Shown one piece after another: positions 2,668 to 48,562 of a stretch of DNA of 64,000 nucleotides. The position numbers were made by a program, and so were the translations under genes. Origin of the DNA: Enterobacteria phage GiZh; sequence record NC_054903.1. The stretch is one strand, 5' to 3'. The notes below the pieces were generated by a model. The model had not been told where the DNA came from. It searched no databases and worked only from the letters and a program-made list of their open reading frames with translations. Positions within the stretch are counted from its first letter, which is position 1, and each line of letters opens with the position of its first letter.

Positions 2668-2958
2668 TTATTTACGGAATGAAATAAAAGCAGCAACTGA
2701 AGCAACTAAACTGTCTTCAATATAAACTTCAATTTTTACCGGAGCTTCTGACTCAAATTTACCTGTTACTACACCTTGGAAAATACTTTCAGTTTGTTCT
2801 GGCTTTGAAAAATTTTCAGAAGGAAAAATTCCGAACTTTTTATCTGTTCCAAAAATTTTAATAAATTCATCGTAAACTGCTTCATTAAAAGCATTATCAG
2901 CAGGAATAACGCCTTCAACTACAAGTTCTTGACCTAAAAAGCGCAAAGAAGATTTCAT
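2668..2958 (-). CDS. Hypothetical protein (96 aa), downstream of alt
   Basis: ORF with early-type promoter and GAGGA RBS upstream; no recognisable motif. Confidence 0.5.
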   Translation of the reverse strand: MKSSLRFLGQELVVEGVIPADNAFNEAVYDEFIKIFGTDKKFGIFPSENFSKPEQTESIFQGVVTGKFESEAPVKIEVYIEDSLVASVAAFISFRK

Positions 2959-2984
2959 TTTGTGTTCCTCATGTTATGTCAGTA

Positions 2985-3020
2985 AGATTACTATAACACA
3001 ACACGAGGGACTTGTAAACT
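2985..3020 (-). promoter_or_regulatory. T4 early-type promoter (-35 TTTACA, 17-bp spacer, -10 TATAGT on minus strand)
   Basis: Plus-strand tgtaaa at 3013-3018 and actata at 2990-2995; part of a 54-bp cassette nearly identical to 18248..18301. Confidence 0.5.
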
Positions 3021-5076
3021 ACATTTTGAACTTTTTAGACATTCCGTTAATGTTAACCAAAGAAGCTAAGATTTGAGAAACTTCGTTTTCCTCTTCTTTT
3101 GATTCTTCTACAAGGAATTGATTAAATCCAGCCATTGGACGAACTTCACCAGTTTCCATTAAATGGTCGCCATCATATACTGATTCTTCTAATTGTTCAG
3201 AAGGAGGAACGATTGTACCTTCGATTAGATACTTATTATAAGCAGTTTCTTTCATAAAGTACGTACTTACTTTATTAATCTTCAGTAAAATTCCACGTGG
3301 TAGAATAACTTCAGCTTCTGATGGAAATCCTGATAAATGACCTGGAACGATAACTTTGATTCGCTCAGCTCCTTTAATTACCATACCCACGCTAGTTTCA
3401 GCATCTTCATTAGCATATGTAGAATGACTACCCATATACATCAAATCTTCAGCATCAACAGAACCTTCTCCTTCACCAGAAAATACTGCGCCGGAATCAT
3501 CTAGAGCCATATAGTTTTTACCATGCTCACCGAAGATATTTGGTTTAAGCGATGTTGATACGAAGTTCTTGAAATAGAACATTTTATTTTCAATATTATG
3601 ACGTAAAGTTTTAAAGGTAACTTCTTGTCCACGGTAAAGTGTAGTTCCCGGAGGAAGAACTGATCCTTTGGCGAATGCAGAATCCAGCGTCTCGATGTGT
3701 TTAATAGCTCGTTCCATGTATTCTTCACGGGTAGAATCTGGTTTACCTAAAAGGAACGAGTTCATTTCAACATATGAATCTGCACAATAATCTTCAATTA
3801 CATCAGACTCAGCCTGAGTTAATCCTTTTGGAGTTACTTCAGTACTTGCATATTCATATGCCTGGGCAGCAGATTCATTAATCAATTTATAAATGCCATT
3901 CATGACAAATTGAATAATAGCTGTCTTTTCATCTGGTGTGGCTTTAGAACCTTTAACTAAATCATTGATAATTTTCTTAATAACATCAAAGCTATTAGAA
4001 ATATTAATATCAGCAAGATCGCTTAAAATTTTATCAGTTTTATAATCAAAGAATTCTTTATTCTTTAAATATTCTTGAGAACCTTGATATGTTATATCGC
4101 TCTGCAACTTGATGGATGGATCACGTAAACGTGCATGGGCTAATGCAATATGATTTCGGAAGTTTTCTAGTTCATAATCGCTAGATTTAAAACGAGAAGC
4201 ACTTCTCATACCACCGATAGCTCCTTTGCTGAAGTTTGAACCAATCTGAATAACGCCAGAGTTCATTGGTCCTTCTGCTTTATATACCGGAACTTTAGAT
4301 TCAAACTCTTGATATTTCTTGGCAGCGAAGCTATCACCCTGAAGTGAAGCATCGACAGTAGAATATTGAGCTTGTGCTGCTAATCGACGACTAATTTTAG
4401 TTTTCTGAATAACAGCTTGATCCGTGCGCTTATCATTTTCTAAGGCAATAGAAGCAGCAACAGCAACAGCTTTAGGAACAGCATTACCTGTTTTAACATC
4501 CACATAAACATCACCAACCTTTGATTCAACTTTTGTGAATAACTCAGTTGAAATAGGAGGTACACCTGGAATGTCTTCTAAATTGGCATTTTTACGGTAA
4601 ACCATAATATATGCATACTTTTTATCATAATCCCAGATTTCCTTTAAAAGAACATATCGACCTGCTCCTTTAGTACGTACTAAACGGTCAGCAATAACTT
4701 GCATTTGACGAGCTGCGCCATTTGTTTTACTTTTTAGTACGCGGAATAAGCATGCATCAATTTTATACTGTTTCATTGTTTGAAGAGCAGTATCAAAAAC
4801 GGCATTAATGACACCAATTGGATTTCCACCTAAGTTTTTAAGTTTAACTAATGATAGTTTCTCATTGACACCTATCATTACGATATGCATCATTTTATCG
4901 CCTGGCTTAACGTTTTTATTTGTATCACCACCAGAGGTGTATGTACAAAATCTAAATCCAGGAAGCACACTTTCTTCGCCGGCTTGAATAGCAAAAATTT
5001 GAGGTATTTTATGCTTAGGATTTAAGTTAACAACCGGCGCCGAAGCGCCGTCAAATAATTCTGTAATAAGTTCCAT
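3019..5076 (-). CDS. alt: Alt-like ADP-ribosyltransferase, paralogue A (685 aa)
   Basis: Length close to T4 Alt (682 aa); R-S-E ART motifs (YRGQ, FVSTSL, EAEVILPRG); position between 54 and DNA ligase. Confidence 0.8.
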   Translation of the reverse strand: MELITELFDGASAPVVNLNPKHKIPQIFAIQAGEESVLPGFRFCTYTSGGDTNKNVKPGDKMMHIVMIGVNEKLSLVKLKNLGGNPIGVINAVFDTALQTMKQYKIDACLFRVLKSKTNGAARQMQVIADRLVRTKGAGRYVLLKEIWDYDKKYAYIMVYRKNANLEDIPGVPPISTELFTKVESKVGDVYVDVKTGNAVPKAVAVAASIALENDKRTDQAVIQKTKISRRLAAQAQYSTVDASLQGDSFAAKKYQEFESKVPVYKAEGPMNSGVIQIGSNFSKGAIGGMRSASRFKSSDYELENFRNHIALAHARLRDPSIKLQSDITYQGSQEYLKNKEFFDYKTDKILSDLADINISNSFDVIKKIINDLVKGSKATPDEKTAIIQFVMNGIYKLINESAAQAYEYASTEVTPKGLTQAESDVIEDYCADSYVEMNSFLLGKPDSTREEYMERAIKHIETLDSAFAKGSVLPPGTTLYRGQEVTFKTLRHNIENKMFYFKNFVSTSLKPNIFGEHGKNYMALDDSGAVFSGEGEGSVDAEDLMYMGSHSTYANEDAETSVGMVIKGAERIKVIVPGHLSGFPSEAEVILPRGILLKINKVSTYFMKETAYNKYLIEGTIVPPSEQLEESVYDGDHLMETGEVRPMAGFNQFLVEESKEEENEVSQILASLVNINGMSKKFKM

Positions 5077-5079
5077 GAT

Positions 5080-7176
5080 TTATCCTTGAACGAACTTGTA
5101 AGGCATGTTTGTAATATCTATGCAAGACGCAATAATTCCAAGAGATGATTCTACTTTTTGTTTAACATTTGATGAAACAAATGATGCAAAGTCAACTCTG
5201 TCTTCTATTTCAATATCACCTGTCATTGCAACTACTTCGCCGGTTTCCATTAAATGGTCTCCGTCATAGATTACCGATTCGGTGAGTTCTTCGGTGGTCA
5301 TAACTTCAGCTTGAATGAGTTTTGTATTATTAGACGTGGTTCCGTCATTATTAGAAGCATCAGTTATTTTATTAACTTTGACCATCAATCCGCGCGGTAG
5401 AATAACTTCAGCTTCTGTTGCTATTCCGAGATTTCCTGGATATACAACATTAACTTTATGAGCTCCATCAATTGCCCATCCTATTTGAACTTTAACGTAT
5501 TCAGGATTTTCTTTATACGCTCTTATTTCGTTTGGATTAATAGTTATTCCTTCTTCATTTTTATCAACTGTCAATTCATTACGAGCTTCTGGTTCTAAAA
5601 GACCAATACCAGCATGTGTAATTCCAAAACGTCCAAAAATGATAGGAGTTAAAGAAGTAGATACAAAATTTCTGAAATAGAACACTTTATTTTTAACTAG
5701 TGCTTCGTATATAGGAGCAGTCATGCTTTGAGCACGATAAACTGTAATGCCTTCTGGTATACGGTCACCATTTTCAAAAGCTGAATCTAAGTTATTTATA
5801 GCAGATTCAATTTCTTTTTCACTCATTACATCATATCGTTCTGGATTGTAGCGTCCTAAAAGAAGATTATTGATGTCAGTATATCCTGAACCGCAATACT
5901 CTCTAATGCCACGCTTTTGTGATGGAGTATATTTAGAACCATCACGGGCAATAGTAATATCAATCATTGGACCTGCACCAATTCCAGAGAAACTATAAAT
6001 CATTCTTTTGAGGAATTTAGTTTTTGTCGCGTTCCAGGAATTTTTAGTTATTTCTTCCCAGACTTCATCTGGCTGTCCTTTACGTGTTTTATTATGTTTA
6101 TCAAGCCAATTATCTTTATATTCTTCAAAGAATTGATTAACAGCTGCTGCGTATTTCTCTAAACATTTTATTGAAGTAGTTGGTTCATTTTTAATCGCAT
6201 TAAGAATTACATCTTTAATTTTTTCAGAAACTTCATTAACCTCACTTTTTGAAAAGAATTTATAGTCATAATGAAGTTCATCTGCAGTTCCTTCAGCAAT
6301 AATTTTTGCTGCCTTAGTTTTAGAAGCTAATGAATTAATTCCAAGCTTCATTTCTTCTGCTTCGGGAATTAAAGGAGCCGTAGCAGGTTTATTGAAATTA
6401 GCTGCGGTAGATTCATACTTTTGGAATAATTCACTTTCAAATCTAGAAGATTCTAATGATTGACTTTGTGCAATTGCTCTACGGGAAATTTTAACTTTAA
6501 CGATTACAGCTTGGTCAGAACGTTTATCGTTTTCTTGCGCAATAGATGCAGCAATTGCCTCATTTTTAGTTACTTGAGCTCCAGTATCTTTATTGATATA
6601 AACATCACCAACCTTTGATTCAACTTTAGTAAAGAGCTCGGTACTAATTTCAGGAACTCCTGGAATGTCTTCTAATGATACATTTTTGCGATGTATAAGA
6701 ATATATGCATACTTTTTATCGTAATCCCAGAGTTCCTTAAGAAGGACGTATCTACCACCTGAACGACTACGGATAAGTCTATCAGCAATAAGTTGAATTT
6801 GTCGAGCTTGACCAGCAGTTTTAGACTTAAGAATACGGAGCATACAGGCATCAATTTTATACTGACGCATCGTTTGCATCGCAACAGTAAAAACTGAATT
6901 GATGTAATTAATTGGGCTTGGACCGAGACCTTTTAATTTAGCAATTGAACCTTTAGCAGTTAATGTAAAAGGAACAATATGCATCATTTTATCGCCCATC
7001 TTTAAATCGCGATTAGTATCACCTCCAGATGTATAGGTACACAAACGAAAGCCTGGTTGTTCAATTGCGTCATCAACATGAACTGAAAAAATTTGCGGTA
7101 TTTTCTTCTTTGGATTTAAGTTTGTAATCGGAAGAGTAGTATCTTCGTCAAATAATTCTGTAATGAGTTCCATCAT
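5080..7176 (-). CDS. Alt-like ADP-ribosyltransferase, paralogue B (698 aa)
   Basis: N-terminal 230 aa and C-terminal ART region align with paralogue A (MELITELFD..., YRAQ, FVSTSL, EAEVILPRG); central region divergent; TATAAATA late promoter upstream. Confidence 0.75.
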   Translation of the reverse strand: MMELITELFDEDTTLPITNLNPKKKIPQIFSVHVDDAIEQPGFRLCTYTSGGDTNRDLKMGDKMMHIVPFTLTAKGSIAKLKGLGPSPINYINSVFTVAMQTMRQYKIDACMLRILKSKTAGQARQIQLIADRLIRSRSGGRYVLLKELWDYDKKYAYILIHRKNVSLEDIPGVPEISTELFTKVESKVGDVYINKDTGAQVTKNEAIAASIAQENDKRSDQAVIVKVKISRRAIAQSQSLESSRFESELFQKYESTAANFNKPATAPLIPEAEEMKLGINSLASKTKAAKIIAEGTADELHYDYKFFSKSEVNEVSEKIKDVILNAIKNEPTTSIKCLEKYAAAVNQFFEEYKDNWLDKHNKTRKGQPDEVWEEITKNSWNATKTKFLKRMIYSFSGIGAGPMIDITIARDGSKYTPSQKRGIREYCGSGYTDINNLLLGRYNPERYDVMSEKEIESAINNLDSAFENGDRIPEGITVYRAQSMTAPIYEALVKNKVFYFRNFVSTSLTPIIFGRFGITHAGIGLLEPEARNELTVDKNEEGITINPNEIRAYKENPEYVKVQIGWAIDGAHKVNVVYPGNLGIATEAEVILPRGLMVKVNKITDASNNDGTTSNNTKLIQAEVMTTEELTESVIYDGDHLMETGEVVAMTGDIEIEDRVDFASFVSSNVKQKVESSLGIIASCIDITNMPYKFVQG

Positions 7177-11111: not shown

Positions 11112-11152
11112 AGTATTTTCCTCAGTAAGGGGCCGAAGCCCCTCATTTTATT

Positions 11153-11518
11153 TTAAATATCAAATTCGTTAAGAACTACATCAAAGATTGCTTCAAGATG
11201 CTCAGGTTTAGCTCTGTTACTCAGAATATGGCGAATCCAAGTTTTAACCAGAAGCTTGCGATTAACGCCATTCCAGCAAGGATGAGTCCCTAAATCGCGT
11301 TGACGAAAATCATCATCCAAAGCGATTTTGAAGTTGGAACCTTCCATTGTGATTGAAACCGTGATGCCATTTTCAAATCGCATATAAACGTAGTTAGGAG
11401 TCATATACTGTTCAATTTCGCATACTGATCCATTTTGATGTTTCCAAAGGCAAATAGTATCAATAGAACCTGCAATACCATTAGAAACATATTTACGTTC
11501 AAAGTTGATGTAGTTCAT
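11153..11518 (-). CDS. Hypothetical protein (121 aa)
   Basis: ORF in early-gene orientation; no motif. Confidence 0.5.
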   Translation of the reverse strand: MNYINFERKYVSNGIAGSIDTICLWKHQNGSVCEIEQYMTPNYVYMRFENGITVSITMEGSNFKIALDDDFRQRDLGTHPCWNGVNRKLLVKTWIRHILSNRAKPEHLEAIFDVVLNEFDI

Positions 11519-11586
11519 TTTTATTCTCCGAGATGTTTAATTGCGGTACAGGTATATAATATCATATCCTGTACCAAAGTAAACAA

Positions 11587-11919: not shown

Positions 11920-12006
11920 TTTATTCTCCTTTGTTTGTGTAAGATAATACTATCACAAAGGAACCATACTGTAAACAACTTTGTGCAATCTTTGGAAAAT
12001 AAAAAA

Positions 12007-17396: not shown

Positions 17397-17746
17397 TTAG
17401 AAAGGTCCTGGATGTCTTCTGCGAACTTGTTGAAGGAGTTGTTAATTTGTTTTTCAACCAATCCTGGCTTACGAGCCACCACATCCGCCTTCTTTGCATC
17501 TTTGCGCAGTTTTTCATTTTCACGCTCAATAGCAGCGATTGCCTCACGATTTTTAGTATTCATCGCATCAATATAATTATACTGAATTCGCAAATTATTT
17601 AATGCTAAAGCGTTTTCATTGGCTGTTTTTGTAATTTCAGTAACTGATGTTTCTAATCTTTCTACCTTATTTTTTAAAATAATAGATGTTCCGCCCAATG
17701 CTATTACAATTAATAGCAAACCTGCTGTCGTATTACTTAATTGCAT
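17393..17746 (-). CDS. Predicted membrane-anchored coiled-coil protein (117 aa)
   Basis: N-terminal hydrophobic helix (AGLLLIVIALGGTSIIL) followed by charged helical region. Confidence 0.5.
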   Translation of the reverse strand: MQLSNTTAGLLLIVIALGGTSIILKNKVERLETSVTEITKTANENALALNNLRIQYNYIDAMNTKNREAIAAIERENEKLRKDAKKADVVARKPGLVEKQINNSFNKFAEDIQDLSK

Positions 17747-18243
17747 AAAGTTTTAATAACCTCTATAATATCGTCTTGAGAAAGACCGTTAATTAAAATA
17801 TGATGTTCAGCTGGAGATTTAGAAATTTTAAAGCATGCCTCAACATCTTCTGCCATATCCGATGCACTACGATTTGGATTACTAATTCCAAGACGATGCT
17901 TTCCAGTCAAAGGATTAACGATGATATAGCATTTGCAGCTATTGATATGAACATTGGGCTGAGTCTGATTAATGAACACTTCGCAATCATACTTAGCGAG
18001 TTGATTTTCTAAAAAGACTTTCATCTCTTCAACCGCATCAGGAAGCATATCACGGGCTTGCTCAAGACGACGATTTCGATATTCTTTAATGGTCGTTTTC
18101 CGCTTGACTTGCTTAGCTAAATCTTTCTTAAGATCGGTGATATATCCAACTCGACGATTTCCTTTGAATACAGAAATCCCATCTGTAGTATCACCGTATG
18201 CTTCAACGACCATTTCAGTAGTAATAAGCTGCAAATCCATCAT
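17737..18243 (-). CDS. alc: Alc (inhibitor of host transcription on cytosine DNA)
   Basis: 167-168 aa as in T4 Alc; position between pseT cluster and rnlA. Confidence 0.8.
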   Translation of the reverse strand: MMDLQLITTEMVVEAYGDTTDGISVFKGNRRVGYITDLKKDLAKQVKRKTTIKEYRNRRLEQARDMLPDAVEEMKVFLENQLAKYDCEVFINQTQPNVHINSCKCYIIVNPLTGKHRLGISNPNRSASDMAEDVEACFKISKSPAEHHILINGLSQDDIIEVIKTLCN

Positions 18244-18263
18244 AAAGTCCTCATGTTATGTCA

Positions 18264-18302
18264 GTAAGACTACTATAACACAACACGAGGGACTTGTAAA
18301 CA
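18264..18302 (-). promoter_or_regulatory. T4 early-type promoter and leader upstream of alc
   Basis: gtaaac at 18296-18301 (rc TTTAC on minus), -10 TATAGT-like; 54-bp cassette nearly identical to 2966..3019. Confidence 0.5.
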
Positions 18303-18304
18303 GC

Positions 18305-19892
<1,588 letters not shown>

Positions 19893-19919: not shown

Positions 19920-21098
19920 TTAAAAGTATTTTTTAAAACTCATCATAACTTTATCATCAACATCATTATCAATCTGTGCAACAAGGTAAGATGACAGTTC
20001 TACTTCTTGTGGCGCGGATTGAACATTATCAGAATTAAGATATTCACGAATCCAAGGATATGGATGTTTAACCGGAGCATCGGTAATTGGGCATGGAAGA
20101 CCGCACTGTTTCATACGAGATACAGTTAAGTAATCAATAAAGCTCCACATGCTATTTGTATTTAATCCAGGAACATCACCATCTTTAAATAAATGAACTG
20201 CCCAGTCTTTTTCCTGGCGGTTAACTTCCATGAAAATATCAACTGCTTCTTGTTCACACTCTTTAGCAATTTTAACCCATTCATCGCCGTCTGTTCCAAG
20301 CTGAAGCTGACGAATAATATATTGGGTGCCTTTAAGGTGAAGCTGTTCATCGCGTGCAATGAACTTCATAATCTTGGCATTACCTTCCATGATTTCCATG
20401 TTCTTATGGAAGTTAAATGTACATGCGAAAGATACATAAAAACGAATAGCTTCCAATGCATTGATTACATGCAAACAGAGGTAAAGAGATTTCATTAGCT
20501 CACGCTTCCAATATGTCTCATGCTCAATAGCATCTTCAATAACGTCTTCGTCTGCATTAATTTCTTTTTGGTATTCGATATCAGCTTTAGCGTTTTCCAA
20601 ATAACGAGTTTTAATCAGAACATCATCATAATAACGTCCAATGGATTCAGCACGTTTCATAATAGCTTCATCTAATACAATTTCATCAAATACCTTCGAT
20701 GGATCAGTATAAAGATTTCGCATGATATGAGTATATGAACGACTGTGAATGGTTTCACTAAAAGTCCATGTAGCAACCCATGTATCAAGGCTTGGGTCTG
20801 AAATCAATGACATAAGTACAGCAGACGGTGCACGACCCTGAATGCTATCTAGAAGTGATTGATACTTCAGATTATTAGTAAAAATATTCTGCTGATATTG
20901 AGGAAGCTTATTAAACTGTGCAGCATCCATCATTAAGTTTACTTCTTCAGGACGCCAGAAAAATGACAACTGCTTTTCGGTTAAATCTTCAAAAACTTTA
21001 TGACGTTGAATATCATAACGCGCAATACCAAGACCTGAACCAAAAAACATAGGTTCTTTTAAAACATCAACTGGATTTGTATTAAAAACTGTGCTCAT
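19920..21098 (-). CDS. nrdB: Ribonucleotide reductase small subunit (class Ia), uninterrupted
   Basis: 392 aa contiguous ORF of the expected size; no intron-sized interruption. Confidence 0.9.
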   Translation of the reverse strand: MSTVFNTNPVDVLKEPMFFGSGLGIARYDIQRHKVFEDLTEKQLSFFWRPEEVNLMMDAAQFNKLPQYQQNIFTNNLKYQSLLDSIQGRAPSAVLMSLISDPSLDTWVATWTFSETIHSRSYTHIMRNLYTDPSKVFDEIVLDEAIMKRAESIGRYYDDVLIKTRYLENAKADIEYQKEINADEDVIEDAIEHETYWKRELMKSLYLCLHVINALEAIRFYVSFACTFNFHKNMEIMEGNAKIMKFIARDEQLHLKGTQYIIRQLQLGTDGDEWVKIAKECEQEAVDIFMEVNRQEKDWAVHLFKDGDVPGLNTNSMWSFIDYLTVSRMKQCGLPCPITDAPVKHPYPWIREYLNSDNVQSAPQEVELSSYLVAQIDNDVDDKVMMSFKKYF

Positions 21099-26422: not shown

Positions 26423-26665
26423 TCAAACAGACTTTTTCACAGTTTTCCAATCAGCTTTAAACTGATCAACATCAGAATGGTAAATCCAGAATCCTGCGCT
26501 TTCTCCATCTTCATAAAGAGGACATCCATCGCATTCATCTTCCCATCCCATATCACGCAAAAGACGTTCAGCTTTTTCAACAAGTTCAGAATCTTTACCG
26601 ATGATATTAAAATACCATTTACCTCTAACTTCTGAATCTTTGATGCTTTGGCGTTGTAATCTCAT
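26423..26665 (-). CDS. Hypothetical protein (80 aa)
   Basis: ORF with early-type promoter (gtaaac 26717-26722) upstream. Confidence 0.5.
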   Translation of the reverse strand: MRLQRQSIKDSEVRGKWYFNIIGKDSELVEKAERLLRDMGWEDECDGCPLYEDGESAGFWIYHSDVDQFKADWKTVKKSV

Positions 26666-26725
26666 TTTATTCTCCTCAGTAGTTGATAGGGTAATAGTAT
26701 CACACTACTACCCTGTTGTAAACAA

Positions 26726-27028
26726 TTATTTTTGAATTTTATCGAGCCACTTACCAAGCTTAATCATTTCTTTAGTAGCCTTTTCCATACTTCTGAACTT
26801 AACCAATAGAGGATAGGTATCGACACCCATAACTAAACTGGTTACAAGACTGTGTTCACCCACAAGCCATAACGAATACGTTTGAATATCGAGCCCGTAA
26901 TTTCTGTCTTTATGGACCCGTACACCCATCACTTCAAATTTCTCACTAGCTTTTTCTACCGCATCCAGGAAATCATCTTTAGTCATATTAGGCCTTAAAA
27001 GTTTTTCGCAAAAGTTCAATGATTTCAT
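26726..27028 (-). CDS. Hypothetical protein (100 aa)
   Basis: ORF in 32-frd interval. Confidence 0.5.
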   Translation of the reverse strand: MKSLNFCEKLLRPNMTKDDFLDAVEKASEKFEVMGVRVHKDRNYGLDIQTYSLWLVGEHSLVTSLVMGVDTYPLLVKFRSMEKATKEMIKLGKWLDKIQK

Positions 27029-27663: not shown

Positions 27664-27747
27664 CAGCAGTATTGCCGATAGTTGTATAGTACCATGGAAG
27701 AATAGGGATGTAAACAGTTTTGTGAAAAAATTTTTGAAATAAAAAAA

Positions 27748-44029: not shown

Positions 44030-44070
44030 TTGATAGTTGTATAGTACCACAGTATGCTTTGGTTGTAAAC
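44030..44070 (-). promoter_or_regulatory. T4 early-type promoter upstream of motA
   Basis: Conserved cassette ...cagtagttgatagttgtatagtaccac...ggttgtaaac (rc gives -35 TTTACA and -10 region). Confidence 0.5.
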
Positions 44071-44100
44071 CGTTTTGTGAAAAAATTTTAAAATAAAAAA

Positions 44101-47037: not shown

Positions 47038-47136
47038 AATAAGCGTTTAATACATCAATCATTAAAACGATTGGGAATATACTCAAAACTACTAGTATTA
47101 TAACTACATTCCATATAGCTTTAATAATCTTTTTCA
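47024..47136 (-). CDS. Small membrane peptide (about 37 aa from MKKIIKAIWNVV)
   Basis: Listed 69-aa ORF reads through the promoter cassette; likely true start is the internal Met. Confidence 0.35.
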
Positions 47137-47379
47137 TTTTCTGTTCCTCCGTAGTTGATAGGGTAATAGTACCACGGAAGAACAGTCTTGTAAACAACTT
47201 TTTAAAAATATTCGTAATAAATGTGAATACCAACTACTACCGCTGAAACCTGTGCAACCCACCACGCACAAGCAATAAGTACAGAATTCAAAATTTTCAT
47301 AATAACCTCATCACAAAAGTAAATGTTAAACAAATTACTGGAATACTAATTAACCAAACAAAACACCACCATAATGAAC

Positions 47380-47643: not shown

Positions 47644-47723
47644 TTTACTCTCCAAATCCGTATCAGTTGATAGTTGTATAGTACCACGGTCCTTGTGGTA
47701 TGTAAACCGTTTTGTGAAAATTT

Positions 47724-48281
47724 TTAAATGGAAAGATACCATCCGTTGTAGTTGCTTTTTCTTACAACCTTACGAAGGTCTTCTCTGTCACCGATGAACT
47801 TCGGAGTGTACTGGATGACACCTGGATGAATTTCTTTAGTGTTGAATATAATTATACAGTCGGCGACTTGATGATTTAGAATGGGCCCTAGATTTATTCC
47901 AGAACCATATGGATACTCTCCGCTGCATCCTGTTGTTACCGAAATCCAACGTGAGTCAGTTTGATGTGTCTTAACTTCTACACGAAGCCCACAGTATTTT
48001 GGATGCGCCAATACATCCCATGCGTATGTATACGGGTCATTAACATCCTCTTGGCCTTTATTAACATACCCGCTTAGCCAATCTGCTACAAAAAATTCTG
48101 CGTACACAGCGATACGGCATCTTTCGATAACTTCTGCCTTATCCTGATTTGGATTTTGTTTTAAAGAGTATCTTGCTGTATCAGCAATTTTGACCTTCAT
48201 TTCACTAGTCAAGTCACTGTTCGATAGGGTAAATGTCGGAATCTGAAATAGTCTCTGTAAACCCGGATTCGTTTTCTGCAT
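47724..48281 (-). CDS. denB: Endonuclease IV
   Basis: 185 aa as in T4 DenB; position between ndd cluster and rIIB. Confidence 0.8.
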   Translation of the reverse strand: MQKTNPGLQRLFQIPTFTLSNSDLTSEMKVKIADTARYSLKQNPNQDKAEVIERCRIAVYAEFFVADWLSGYVNKGQEDVNDPYTYAWDVLAHPKYCGLRVEVKTHQTDSRWISVTTGCSGEYPYGSGINLGPILNHQVADCIIIFNTKEIHPGVIQYTPKFIGDREDLRKVVRKSNYNGWYLSI

Positions 48282-48367
48282 TAAACTTTCCTTTTACGTC
48301 GGAATCACTGATATTCATACAATAAATCATAGTTTCCCTTAAAACAAAAGGGCCGAAGCCCCTTATT

Positions 48368-48562
48368 TTATTTGAATTGTGCAATTCTTTTTTCTAAACA
48401 CTCTGCGTAAGATTTCATTGAGATGAACTGTGAAAGTAGAAGTTCTTGCTCAACTGCACTAACTGTTAGAAACTTTGTGCTTTCTAAAAATTTGCTCAGT
48501 GCATTAATTTTGAGCATTAATTGATCGTATTCTTCTTTTACTCGTGCTTGATAACCTAACAT
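48368..48562 (-). CDS. Hypothetical protein (64 aa)
   Basis: ORF flanked by two tetraloop hairpins (48343-48358, 48573-48588). Confidence 0.45.
   Translation of the reverse strand: MLGYQARVKEEYDQLMLKINALSKFLESTKFLTVSAVEQELLLSQFISMKSYAECLEKRIAQFK

Follow-up and report, generated by a model that had tools for sequence, protein, structure and literature searches.

Two genes of Enterobacteria phage GiZh, alt.-3 and alc, are preceded by near-identical copies of a 54-bp early-promoter cassette, and the explanation that we favour as probable is that this cassette doubles as a hairpin that hides its own Shine-Dalgarno sequence, is ancestral at alc and was copied to alt.-3. Our analysis covers 64,000 nucleotides of sequence record NC_054903.1 (hereafter the window), which represent a Tequatrovirus (T4-like) genome with Shigella phage ESh33 as its best match (99.9%). 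A preliminary description of this DNA had reported the cassette at 2966..3019 and 18248..18301 with one mismatch, and this is borne out: the 54-mer has exactly two matches in the window, 53/54 identical to one another, and 0 matches in 100 dinucleotide shuffles. The sole mismatch is a t at 2987 and a c at 18269, and a repeat finder groups both copies as a single family (D11, 98% identical). The copies form direct repeats at a distance of 15.3 kb with sharp limits, the first base being the G of GTTTAC at the -35 element and the final base the last A of the Shine-Dalgarno GAGGA; extending the repeat into the flanks on either side gave alignments no better than shuffled controls.

2966..3019, minus strand: cassette copy 1, upstream of alt.-3, with promoter, leader and Shine-Dalgarno sequence; minus-strand sequence GTTTACAAGTCCCTCGTGTTGTGTTATAGTAATCTTACTGACATAACATGAGGA
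18248..18301, minus strand: second cassette copy, preceding alc, which matches copy 1 at 53/54 positions

A search for more copies returned none beyond these two, either in the window or per Tequatrovirus record among the matches listed. A 63-mer around copy 1 matches 505 phage records at 1002 places, exactly two per Tequatrovirus record among those listed, T4 and T2 included, and the T4 copies are likewise 53/54 identical with the mismatch at another position than in the window. Since some 500 relatives carry two copies, the duplication is a fixed feature of the genus, without a third copy.

The sequence supports well a promoter reading of both copies, in agreement with the preliminary description, which had proposed an early promoter, a leader and GAGGA on the minus strand. 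Both copies contain TTTACA, a 17-bp spacer and TATAGT, matching 10/12 positions of the sigma-70/T4 early consensus, and an extended -10 is present at both sites in the form of TGT directly before TATAGT. Predicted T4-type early promoters are annotated in two public GenBank records, that of SA21RB at both sites and that of fPS-65 at site 1. The coding ends upstream of both copies contain A-tracts (site 1 TCTAAAAAGTTCAAAATGTA; site 2 GAAAAATTATAAAAAATTTAT), which differ between the sites and may or may not amount to an A/T-rich UP element at -40 to -60. The promoter elements, together with the predicted starts and ribosome sites, are the following.

3013..3018, minus strand: -35 TTTACA of copy 1; GTTTAC is 3014-3019, with its G closing the TAG stop codon of the Alt paralogue upstream
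2990..2998, minus strand: extended -10 (TGT + TATAGT) of copy 1, from the promoter scan
2983, minus strand: predicted transcription start of copy 1, an A, the seventh base after the -10 hexamer, placed by the usual sigma-70 geometry
2966..2970, minus strand: GAGGA, the Shine-Dalgarno sequence of alt.-3, with 7 nt between it and the ATG (2956-2958)
18295..18300, minus strand: -35 TTTACA of copy 2; GTTTAC is 18296-18301
18272..18280, minus strand: extended -10 (TGT + TATAGT) of copy 2, from the promoter scan
18265, minus strand: predicted transcription start of copy 2, an A
18248..18252, minus strand: GAGGA, the Shine-Dalgarno sequence of alc, with 7 nt between it and the second ATG (18238-18240), where the T4 annotation places the gene start

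As one part of the favoured explanation, each copy is thus probably a complete expression cassette with a strong early sigma-70 promoter, a leader of ~20 nt and GAGGA 7 nt from the start codon. In one preprint with T4 differential RNA-seq (dRNA-seq) data, alc is among the quantitative polymerase chain reaction targets that validate A-initiated, nicotinamide adenine dinucleotide-capped T4 transcripts (bioRxiv 10.1101/2024.04.04.588121), a weak and indirect indication.

The likeness of the two copies goes well beyond what early promoters have in common. The window contains 19 occurrences of GTTTAC-N16-19-TAnnnT where 3.5 would be expected, 17 of the 19 on the minus strand, and these 17 minus-strand early-type promoters have a mean pairwise identity of 23.5 +/- 4.8 of 54 positions, with 42 in the next best pair and 53 in the cassette pair; measured against this promoter background, near-identity therefore reflects copying and not consensus. 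Co-regulation of the two genes, which the preliminary description took the shared cassette to imply, is plausible, and as a claim it says little because T4 early promoters all fire at the same time. Beyond that, the identity gives both genes the same core promoter strength, leader and translation-initiation region. Elsewhere in the window, a second alike pair of early promoter/leader regions lies at 26662-26740 and 47134-47212 (79 nt at 76%; 42/54 in the cassette register).

A feature that the preliminary description missed is a hairpin that buries the Shine-Dalgarno sequence. The cassette is an imperfect palindrome whose 5' arm is formed by the promoter spacer and the -10 element and whose 3' arm is formed by the leader and the Shine-Dalgarno sequence; in cassette positions, the 5' arm is 7/9-31, the loop 32-35 and the 3' arm 36-57, with GAGGA at 50-54.

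2964..3011, minus strand: read-through hairpin of copy 1, predicted fold, 20 bp, loop 2985-2988, -23.0 kcal/mol
18245..18295, minus strand: read-through hairpin of copy 2, predicted fold, 22 bp, loop 18267-18270, -24.4 kcal/mol

RNA that reads through the cassette is predicted to fold with -32.2 kcal/mol at site 2 (z -4.0) and -24.0 at site 1 (z -3.7), with 0/200 shuffles as stable, and GAGGA is wholly paired in both the minimum free energy (MFE) and the centroid structures computed for it. For alc, the ensemble probability that the Shine-Dalgarno sequence pairs upstream of the start is 1.00, versus 0.45 +/- 0.26 in controls with a shuffled upstream part (0/100). The predicted start, A37 of the cassette, sits just 3' of the loop, so that transcripts from the cassette's own promoter would be without the 5' arm and their ribosome site would be free; RNA computed from A37 onwards folds weakly (-4.8 and -2.2 kcal/mol, z ~0). 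A terminator scan flags no intrinsic terminator at either copy and does flag 2642-2663, and neither stem is followed by a T-run. In a search of Rfam 15 the cassette obtained only a chance match to a microRNA precursor (E = 0.9), and the whole window gave no match at gathering score. Within Tequatrovirus, variable positions are enriched among those left unpaired (5/7 vs 10/39, Fisher P = 0.029), and SHFML-26 carries a double change from C15-G50 to U15-A50.

Comparison with other genera separates the two loci. Early-type promoters stand at both of them in RB69 (Mosigvirus), IME08 (Dhakavirus), STP4-a (Gelderlandvirus) and EcL8g (Karamvirus), where the two promoters are mutually unlike. Upstream of alc, complementarity between the spacer and the Shine-Dalgarno region is kept despite differing arms in Dhaka-, Gelderland-, Karam-, Jiaoda-, Winkler- and Moonvirus and in several IMG/VR contigs, with arms such as these.

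EcL8g and Moon, alc: 5' arm TCTCCATTTGGTT, 3' arm AACCAAATGGAGA
CHI14, alc: 5' arm TCCTCATTTCGTT, 3' arm AACGAAATGAGGA
W1W2-10, alc: 5' arm ATCCTCATCAG, 3' arm CTGATGAGGAT
IME08, alc: 5' arm TCTCCTCAT, 3' arm ATGAGGAGA
IMG/VR contig L062, alc: 5' arm CCTCGTTTGTT, 3' arm AACAAACGAGG
IMG/VR contig L054, alc: 5' arm AACCTCTCATTTT, 3' arm AAAATGAGAGGTT

Judged by sequence comparison, the promoter-in-hairpin layout at alc is conserved in at least seven genera, with compensatory changes. Covariation was counted over a 14-pair structure in a structure-blind alignment (MAFFT) of 18 distinct alc-upstream sequences: 80.3% of the alignment cells pair, versus 33-54% with slid partners; 7/14 pairs show double changes (34 cells); and the covariation score is 0.296, versus 0.163 +/- 0.019 in shuffles (0/500). 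Because the MAFFT alignment leaves the T4-type and IME08-type rows out of register, the pair count errs on the low side. Covariation without sequence conservation favours a nucleic-acid structure over a protein-binding palindrome. RNAalifold on a 7-sequence MAFFT alignment had yielded a weak consensus (-4.2 kcal/mol) with the arms out of register and was replaced by per-sequence folds, an arm-swap duplex test and the pair counting on 18 sequences. The covariance model derived from the 18-sequence alignment mostly recognises early-promoter cassettes in general, its T4-type row is still out of register, and it was left unused for the counts. At the alc locus of Yersinia phage vB_YenM_P8 (PP693301.1, 1-261), two adjacent open reading frames (ORFs) bear the annotation 'host transcription inhibitor'; alc is preceded there by an incomplete alc-like ORF, and the gap between the two holds no GTTTAC promoter, which is another arrangement of the locus.

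The gene context given in the preliminary description also holds: copy 1 stands before a 96-aa ORF downstream of alt, and copy 2 immediately upstream of alc. Copy 1 occupies a 60-nt gap from the TAG stop of the Alt-like gene to the ATG of alt.-3, and copy 2 a 61-nt gap between the rnlA stop (18305) and alc, the genes at both sites being all on the minus strand.

2668..2958, minus strand: alt.-3, the gene downstream of copy 1, 96 aa, Pfam DUF5498
3019..5076, minus strand: second Alt-like ADP-ribosyltransferase, full length, 685 aa, the source of read-through into copy 1
17737..18243, minus strand: alc, inhibitor of host transcription, the first gene behind copy 2, Pfam PF17527
18305..19429, minus strand: rnlA (RNA ligase 1), the source of read-through into copy 2, its stop ending 3 nt before GTTTAC

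The proteins downstream of the two copies, Alt.-3 and Alc, show no similarity; a likeness of their N-termini (ELVVEG/EMVVEA) was considered and rejected as not significant. The second Alt-like gene, whose T4 counterpart is truncated to alt.-1/alt.-2, is one of two tandem full-length Alt-like ADP-ribosyltransferase genes (3019-5076, 685 aa, and 5080-7176, 698 aa) that share several DNA segments of 70-80% identity. A terminator-like bidirectional hairpin at 2642-2663 (9 bp, 6 of them G-C, with T-runs on either strand) separates the convergent genes 54 and alt.-3, so that alt.-3 is transcribed as a unit of one gene; the SA21RB and fPS-65 records annotate terminators at the matching place. Beyond rnlA, nrdB (19920-21098) is an uninterrupted 392-aa ORF without the group I intron present in T4 nrdB.

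As to where the cassette came from, the alt.-3 promoters of the outgroups RB69, IME08, STP4-a and EcL8g share a spacer motif of their own, CACATGGA(T/A)GTG, and show no hairpin (z -0.4 to -1.7), versus z -5.1 for the Tequatrovirus alt.-3 copy, and the T4-type spacer resembles alc-type spacers, with that of IME08 alc as its best match. Since the layout is kept at alc in other genera and absent at alt.-3 outside Tequatrovirus, alc is most likely the cassette's original site, from which it was copied to alt.-3 in a Tequatrovirus ancestor. The opposite direction, from alt.-3 to alc, had first been based on the AACATGAGGAA leader and on the break in homology between RB69 and T4, and was dropped because the hairpin is conserved at alc and absent at outgroup alt.-3. 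The genome collection searched contains no close outgroup to Tequatrovirus, alc DNA identity falling from at least 90% to ~70%. In the arm-swap duplex test, the RB69 alc leader pairs with the T4-type spacer at -19.8 kcal/mol, versus -16.6 for the T4-type leader, and the RB69 alt.-3 and alc leaders share ATCAACAACAYGAGGA at 15/16 positions with differing spacers (5752-5810; 18515-18582); this leader likeness and spacer pairing hint at older or repeated exchange between the alt.-3 and alc loci.

A 3' half-cassette, from the -10 to the ATG (TATAGTAGTCTTACTGA-AACATGAGGAACACAAAATG), is found on the minus strand of Mosigvirus LF82-41 (PV660463.1, ~19998-20058), upstream of an unrelated 66-aa ORF beside ndd. 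It carries the site-1-specific AACACAAAATG, has another -35 and spacer, and is without the Shine-Dalgarno-burying hairpin. Together with the copy from alc to alt.-3, the LF82-41 sequence suggests mobility at the level of the cassette.

The two copies also appear to have exchanged sequence after the duplication. Both were compared in 17 genomes, with variants taken from GenBank records, an IMG/VR pattern scan having given seven stretches. At 5/7 variable alc positions, the same variant is found at alt.-3 (16A, 19C, 27C, 32A and 34T; hypergeometric P = 0.006). The 19C variant (T19C) occurs only in YwIITB1, in both of its copies, and SfPhi01, the only paired genome with 34T at alc, has 34T in its alt.-3 copy too. 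Paralogue distance is 2.24 within genomes versus 2.64 between them (permutation p = 0.023), and paralogue divergence does not exceed orthologue divergence (orthologues: alc 1.55, alt.-3 3.35). These patterns suggest recurrent short-patch gene conversion between the copies. Two variants alter the -10 element: a T-to-C change at position 27 (window 18275 / 2993), which turns TATAGT into TACAGT, is present in the alc copy of 6/19 genomes and the alt.-3 copy of 2/19, and a G-to-A change that gives the consensus TATAAT is found in the alt.-3 copy only, in 4 genomes.

Taken together, the favoured explanation would run as follows. Transcripts from the cassette promoter would start at A37, without the 5' arm and with the ribosome site open, and read-through RNA from rnlA or the Alt paralogue would contain both arms and, as computed in silico, form a 20-22 bp hairpin that buries the Shine-Dalgarno sequence. 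On such read-through RNA the downstream gene would be silent, or would be translated only if a ribosome terminating at the nearby upstream stop opened the stem, and synthesis of Alc and Alt.-3 would thereby be confined to RNA from their own immediate-early promoters. By comparison across the subfamily, the promoter-in-hairpin layout is the ancestral state of the alc promoter, and in the ancestor of Tequatrovirus a copy of it presumably took the place of the promoter and leader that alt.-3 had before. The copying junctions probably lay in GTTTAC, which is common to all early promoters, and in ...ATGAGGA, which was already in both leaders; short patches may later have been exchanged between the copies by gene conversion, as the shared variants suggest.

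Several observations weigh against this explanation. At alt.-3, the Shine-Dalgarno pairing probability is 0.76 versus 0.59 in the control, and 13/100 shuffles reach 0.76. About half of the substitutions at paired positions within Tequatrovirus break the pair (18, 19, 29, 50), so that variation within the genus argues only weakly for the structure. The alc hairpin is lacking in RB69, in 44RR2.8t and in a few IMG/VR contigs and must therefore be dispensable. The T4-type leader (AACATGAGGA) is also like outgroup alt.-3 leaders; a cassette of chimeric origin is conceivable, and the copying direction is uncertain. The variants shared between copies are all transitions in related genomes and may reflect parallel mutation or shared ancestry, and both the start and the translational effect are model predictions.

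Three known kinds of element resemble the cassette. T4 early (Pe) promoters belong to the 'UP/-35/TGn/-10' class (Hinton 2010, PMC2988021), and the cassette shares with them GTTTACA, the 17-bp spacer, TGn, a TAnnnT -10 and a location immediately ahead of early genes, on the strand that encodes them; it differs in that the pair is identical through the spacer, leader and Shine-Dalgarno sequence, whereas the A/T-rich upstream regions lie in two different coding sequences and are unshared. Promoter-early stem-loop (PeSL) cassettes (Arbiol et al. 2010, PMC2839356; Comeau et al. 2014, PMC4122927) are, like the GiZh cassette, units bounded by an upstream stop and a downstream Shine-Dalgarno sequence and ATG, in which a sigma-70-type early promoter overlaps a stem-loop, and in both cases there is evidence that the cassette or part of it moved between loci. 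In contrast to PeSLs, the GiZh stem is much longer (20-22 bp) and runs from the spacer to the Shine-Dalgarno sequence, which it buries, whereas PeSL stem-loops are read as terminators and in PST/T4 are described upstream of the promoter (PMC4122927); the GiZh cassette has two copies at loci conserved across genera, not many among ORFans in hyperplastic regions, and no indel is bounded by it among the relatives listed. Similar in its predicted working is the arrangement at four T4 genes, e, soc, 49 and I-TevI, whose ribosome sites are sequestered by a hairpin with a late promoter inside it (Uzan & Miller 2010, PMC3014915, section 29): there too, long transcripts hold both arms and hide the Shine-Dalgarno sequence and AUG, the promoter is in the DNA of the 5' arm and the promoter's own transcripts are translatable, as the model has it for the cassette. 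The difference is that their internal promoter is late (gp55) and limits translation to late times, whereas the cassette promoter is of the early sigma-70 type; no T4 late promoter TATAAATA is present in either copy of the cassette. The searchable papers yielded nothing usable on the cassette sequence or on mapped starts of alc and alt.-3, and the arrangement is not described there for alc or alt.-3; older T4 literature lies outside that search, so an earlier mention is possible. The kind of element is known, and its layout and its copying between two loci appear new against the searchable literature. Classical PeSL-like units are also present in the window, each made up of a G+C-rich stem-loop AAGGGGCCGAAGCCCCT with a T-run and, after it, an A/T-rich stretch and GTTTACA.

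11127-11170 and 48347-48390; 27677-27745, 44032-44100 and 47669-47737: PeSL-like repeats, families D1, D17 and D18, 70-82% identity

Two alternatives accept the hairpin and assign it another task. It could be a translational-coupling device, in which a ribosome at the upstream stop melts the stem base, frees GAGGA and so ties alc and alt.-3 to translation of the upstream gene. The footprint of a terminating ribosome is of established size, and the part of the 5' arm that pairs with the Shine-Dalgarno sequence starts just 8-15 nt after the upstream stop, which would be within its reach; because a stop codon lies 0-7 nt 5' of GTTTAC in every genus examined, a terminating ribosome could open the stem base in all of them. 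We nonetheless find this doubtful, since the stem is long (20-22 bp) and the ribosome would cover only its lower third, and since the hairpins of T4 e, soc, 49 and I-TevI, which have the same geometry, act as silencers (PMC3014915). Still less probable to our minds is a PeSL-type attenuator or terminator of upstream transcripts with incidental pairing of the Shine-Dalgarno sequence. The promoter-embedded stem-loops of RB49 and phi1 have been so interpreted, and one of them cut lacZ expression like a strong terminator (Arbiol et al. 2010, PMC2839356), yet no U-tract follows the GiZh stems, which continue with ACACAAAAUG at site 1 and CUUUAUGAUG at site 2, and the scan flags neither; in the outgroups, the sequence after the stem is A-rich, and the 3' arm always ends on the Shine-Dalgarno sequence, which a terminator would not need.

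The other two alternatives concern the repeat itself. That the copies are ordinary promoters serving mainly as a homology substrate for module-exchanging recombination, an idea that the preliminary description had raised, is improbable and, as it was stated, unsupported: the ~500 relatives keep both loci, the 505 records contain no cassette-bounded rearrangement among the matches listed, and the sole visible exchange is of the cassette sequence itself. Genes 30 and 31 are essential in T4, and because the direct repeats bracket 15.3 kb that includes both, a crossover between the copies would be inviable. Speaking for such exchange are the half-cassette beside ndd in LF82-41 and the documented role of PeSL-type cassettes as recombination substrates in T4-like phages (PMC2839356, PMC4122927). 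Convergence of both sites on an optimal early promoter and ribosome site, for which one could cite the extended consensus common to T4 early promoters, deserves practically no credence: the other early promoters of the window share only the 23.5 +/- 4.8 of 54 positions given above, the alc promoter orthologues of other genera have quite different spacers and leaders, and the identity covers spacer and loop positions that vary freely elsewhere.

The Shine-Dalgarno-hiding cassette that we favour may have further counterparts. The same type of hairpin between spacer and Shine-Dalgarno sequence is seen at three other minus-strand early promoters of the window (-35 at 11976, 47195 and 57709; MFE -12.5, -22.7 and -23.7 kcal/mol), and at three more (-35 at 11584, 26723 and 56701) the spacer pairs with the first transcribed bases and not with the Shine-Dalgarno sequence; given these additional promoters with pairing spacers, promoter-embedded hairpins seem common in GiZh. 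We tentatively propose, at somewhat short of even confidence, that 'self-insulating' early cassettes form a class in T4-like phages, in which the spacer would encode an anti-Shine-Dalgarno sequence and translation would proceed only from RNA of the cassette's own promoter, read-through RNA being translated under certain conditions or not at all. Conserved in at least seven genera, the alc cassette would be the archetype, copyable as a unit (to alt.-3, and as a half near ndd in a Mosigvirus) and homogenised by gene conversion, and the promoters at 11976, 47195 and 57709 would be three more members.

If the hairpin is without effect, what is left is the duplication of an ordinary early promoter, which T4 has as well. 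The two-copy state is a natural system in which ectopic gene conversion between 54-bp phage repeats could be measured. If the hairpin works as predicted, the trick of the late genes e, soc, 49 and I-TevI would be extended to early promoters, and embedded stem-loops of the PeSL type would gain a second possible function, namely translational insulation and not termination. Alc aborts transcription on cytosine DNA, and the hairpin would explain how it is confined to the first minutes of infection despite long overlapping early, middle and late transcripts: the gene would perhaps still be transcribed, but only promoter-proximal RNA would be translated.

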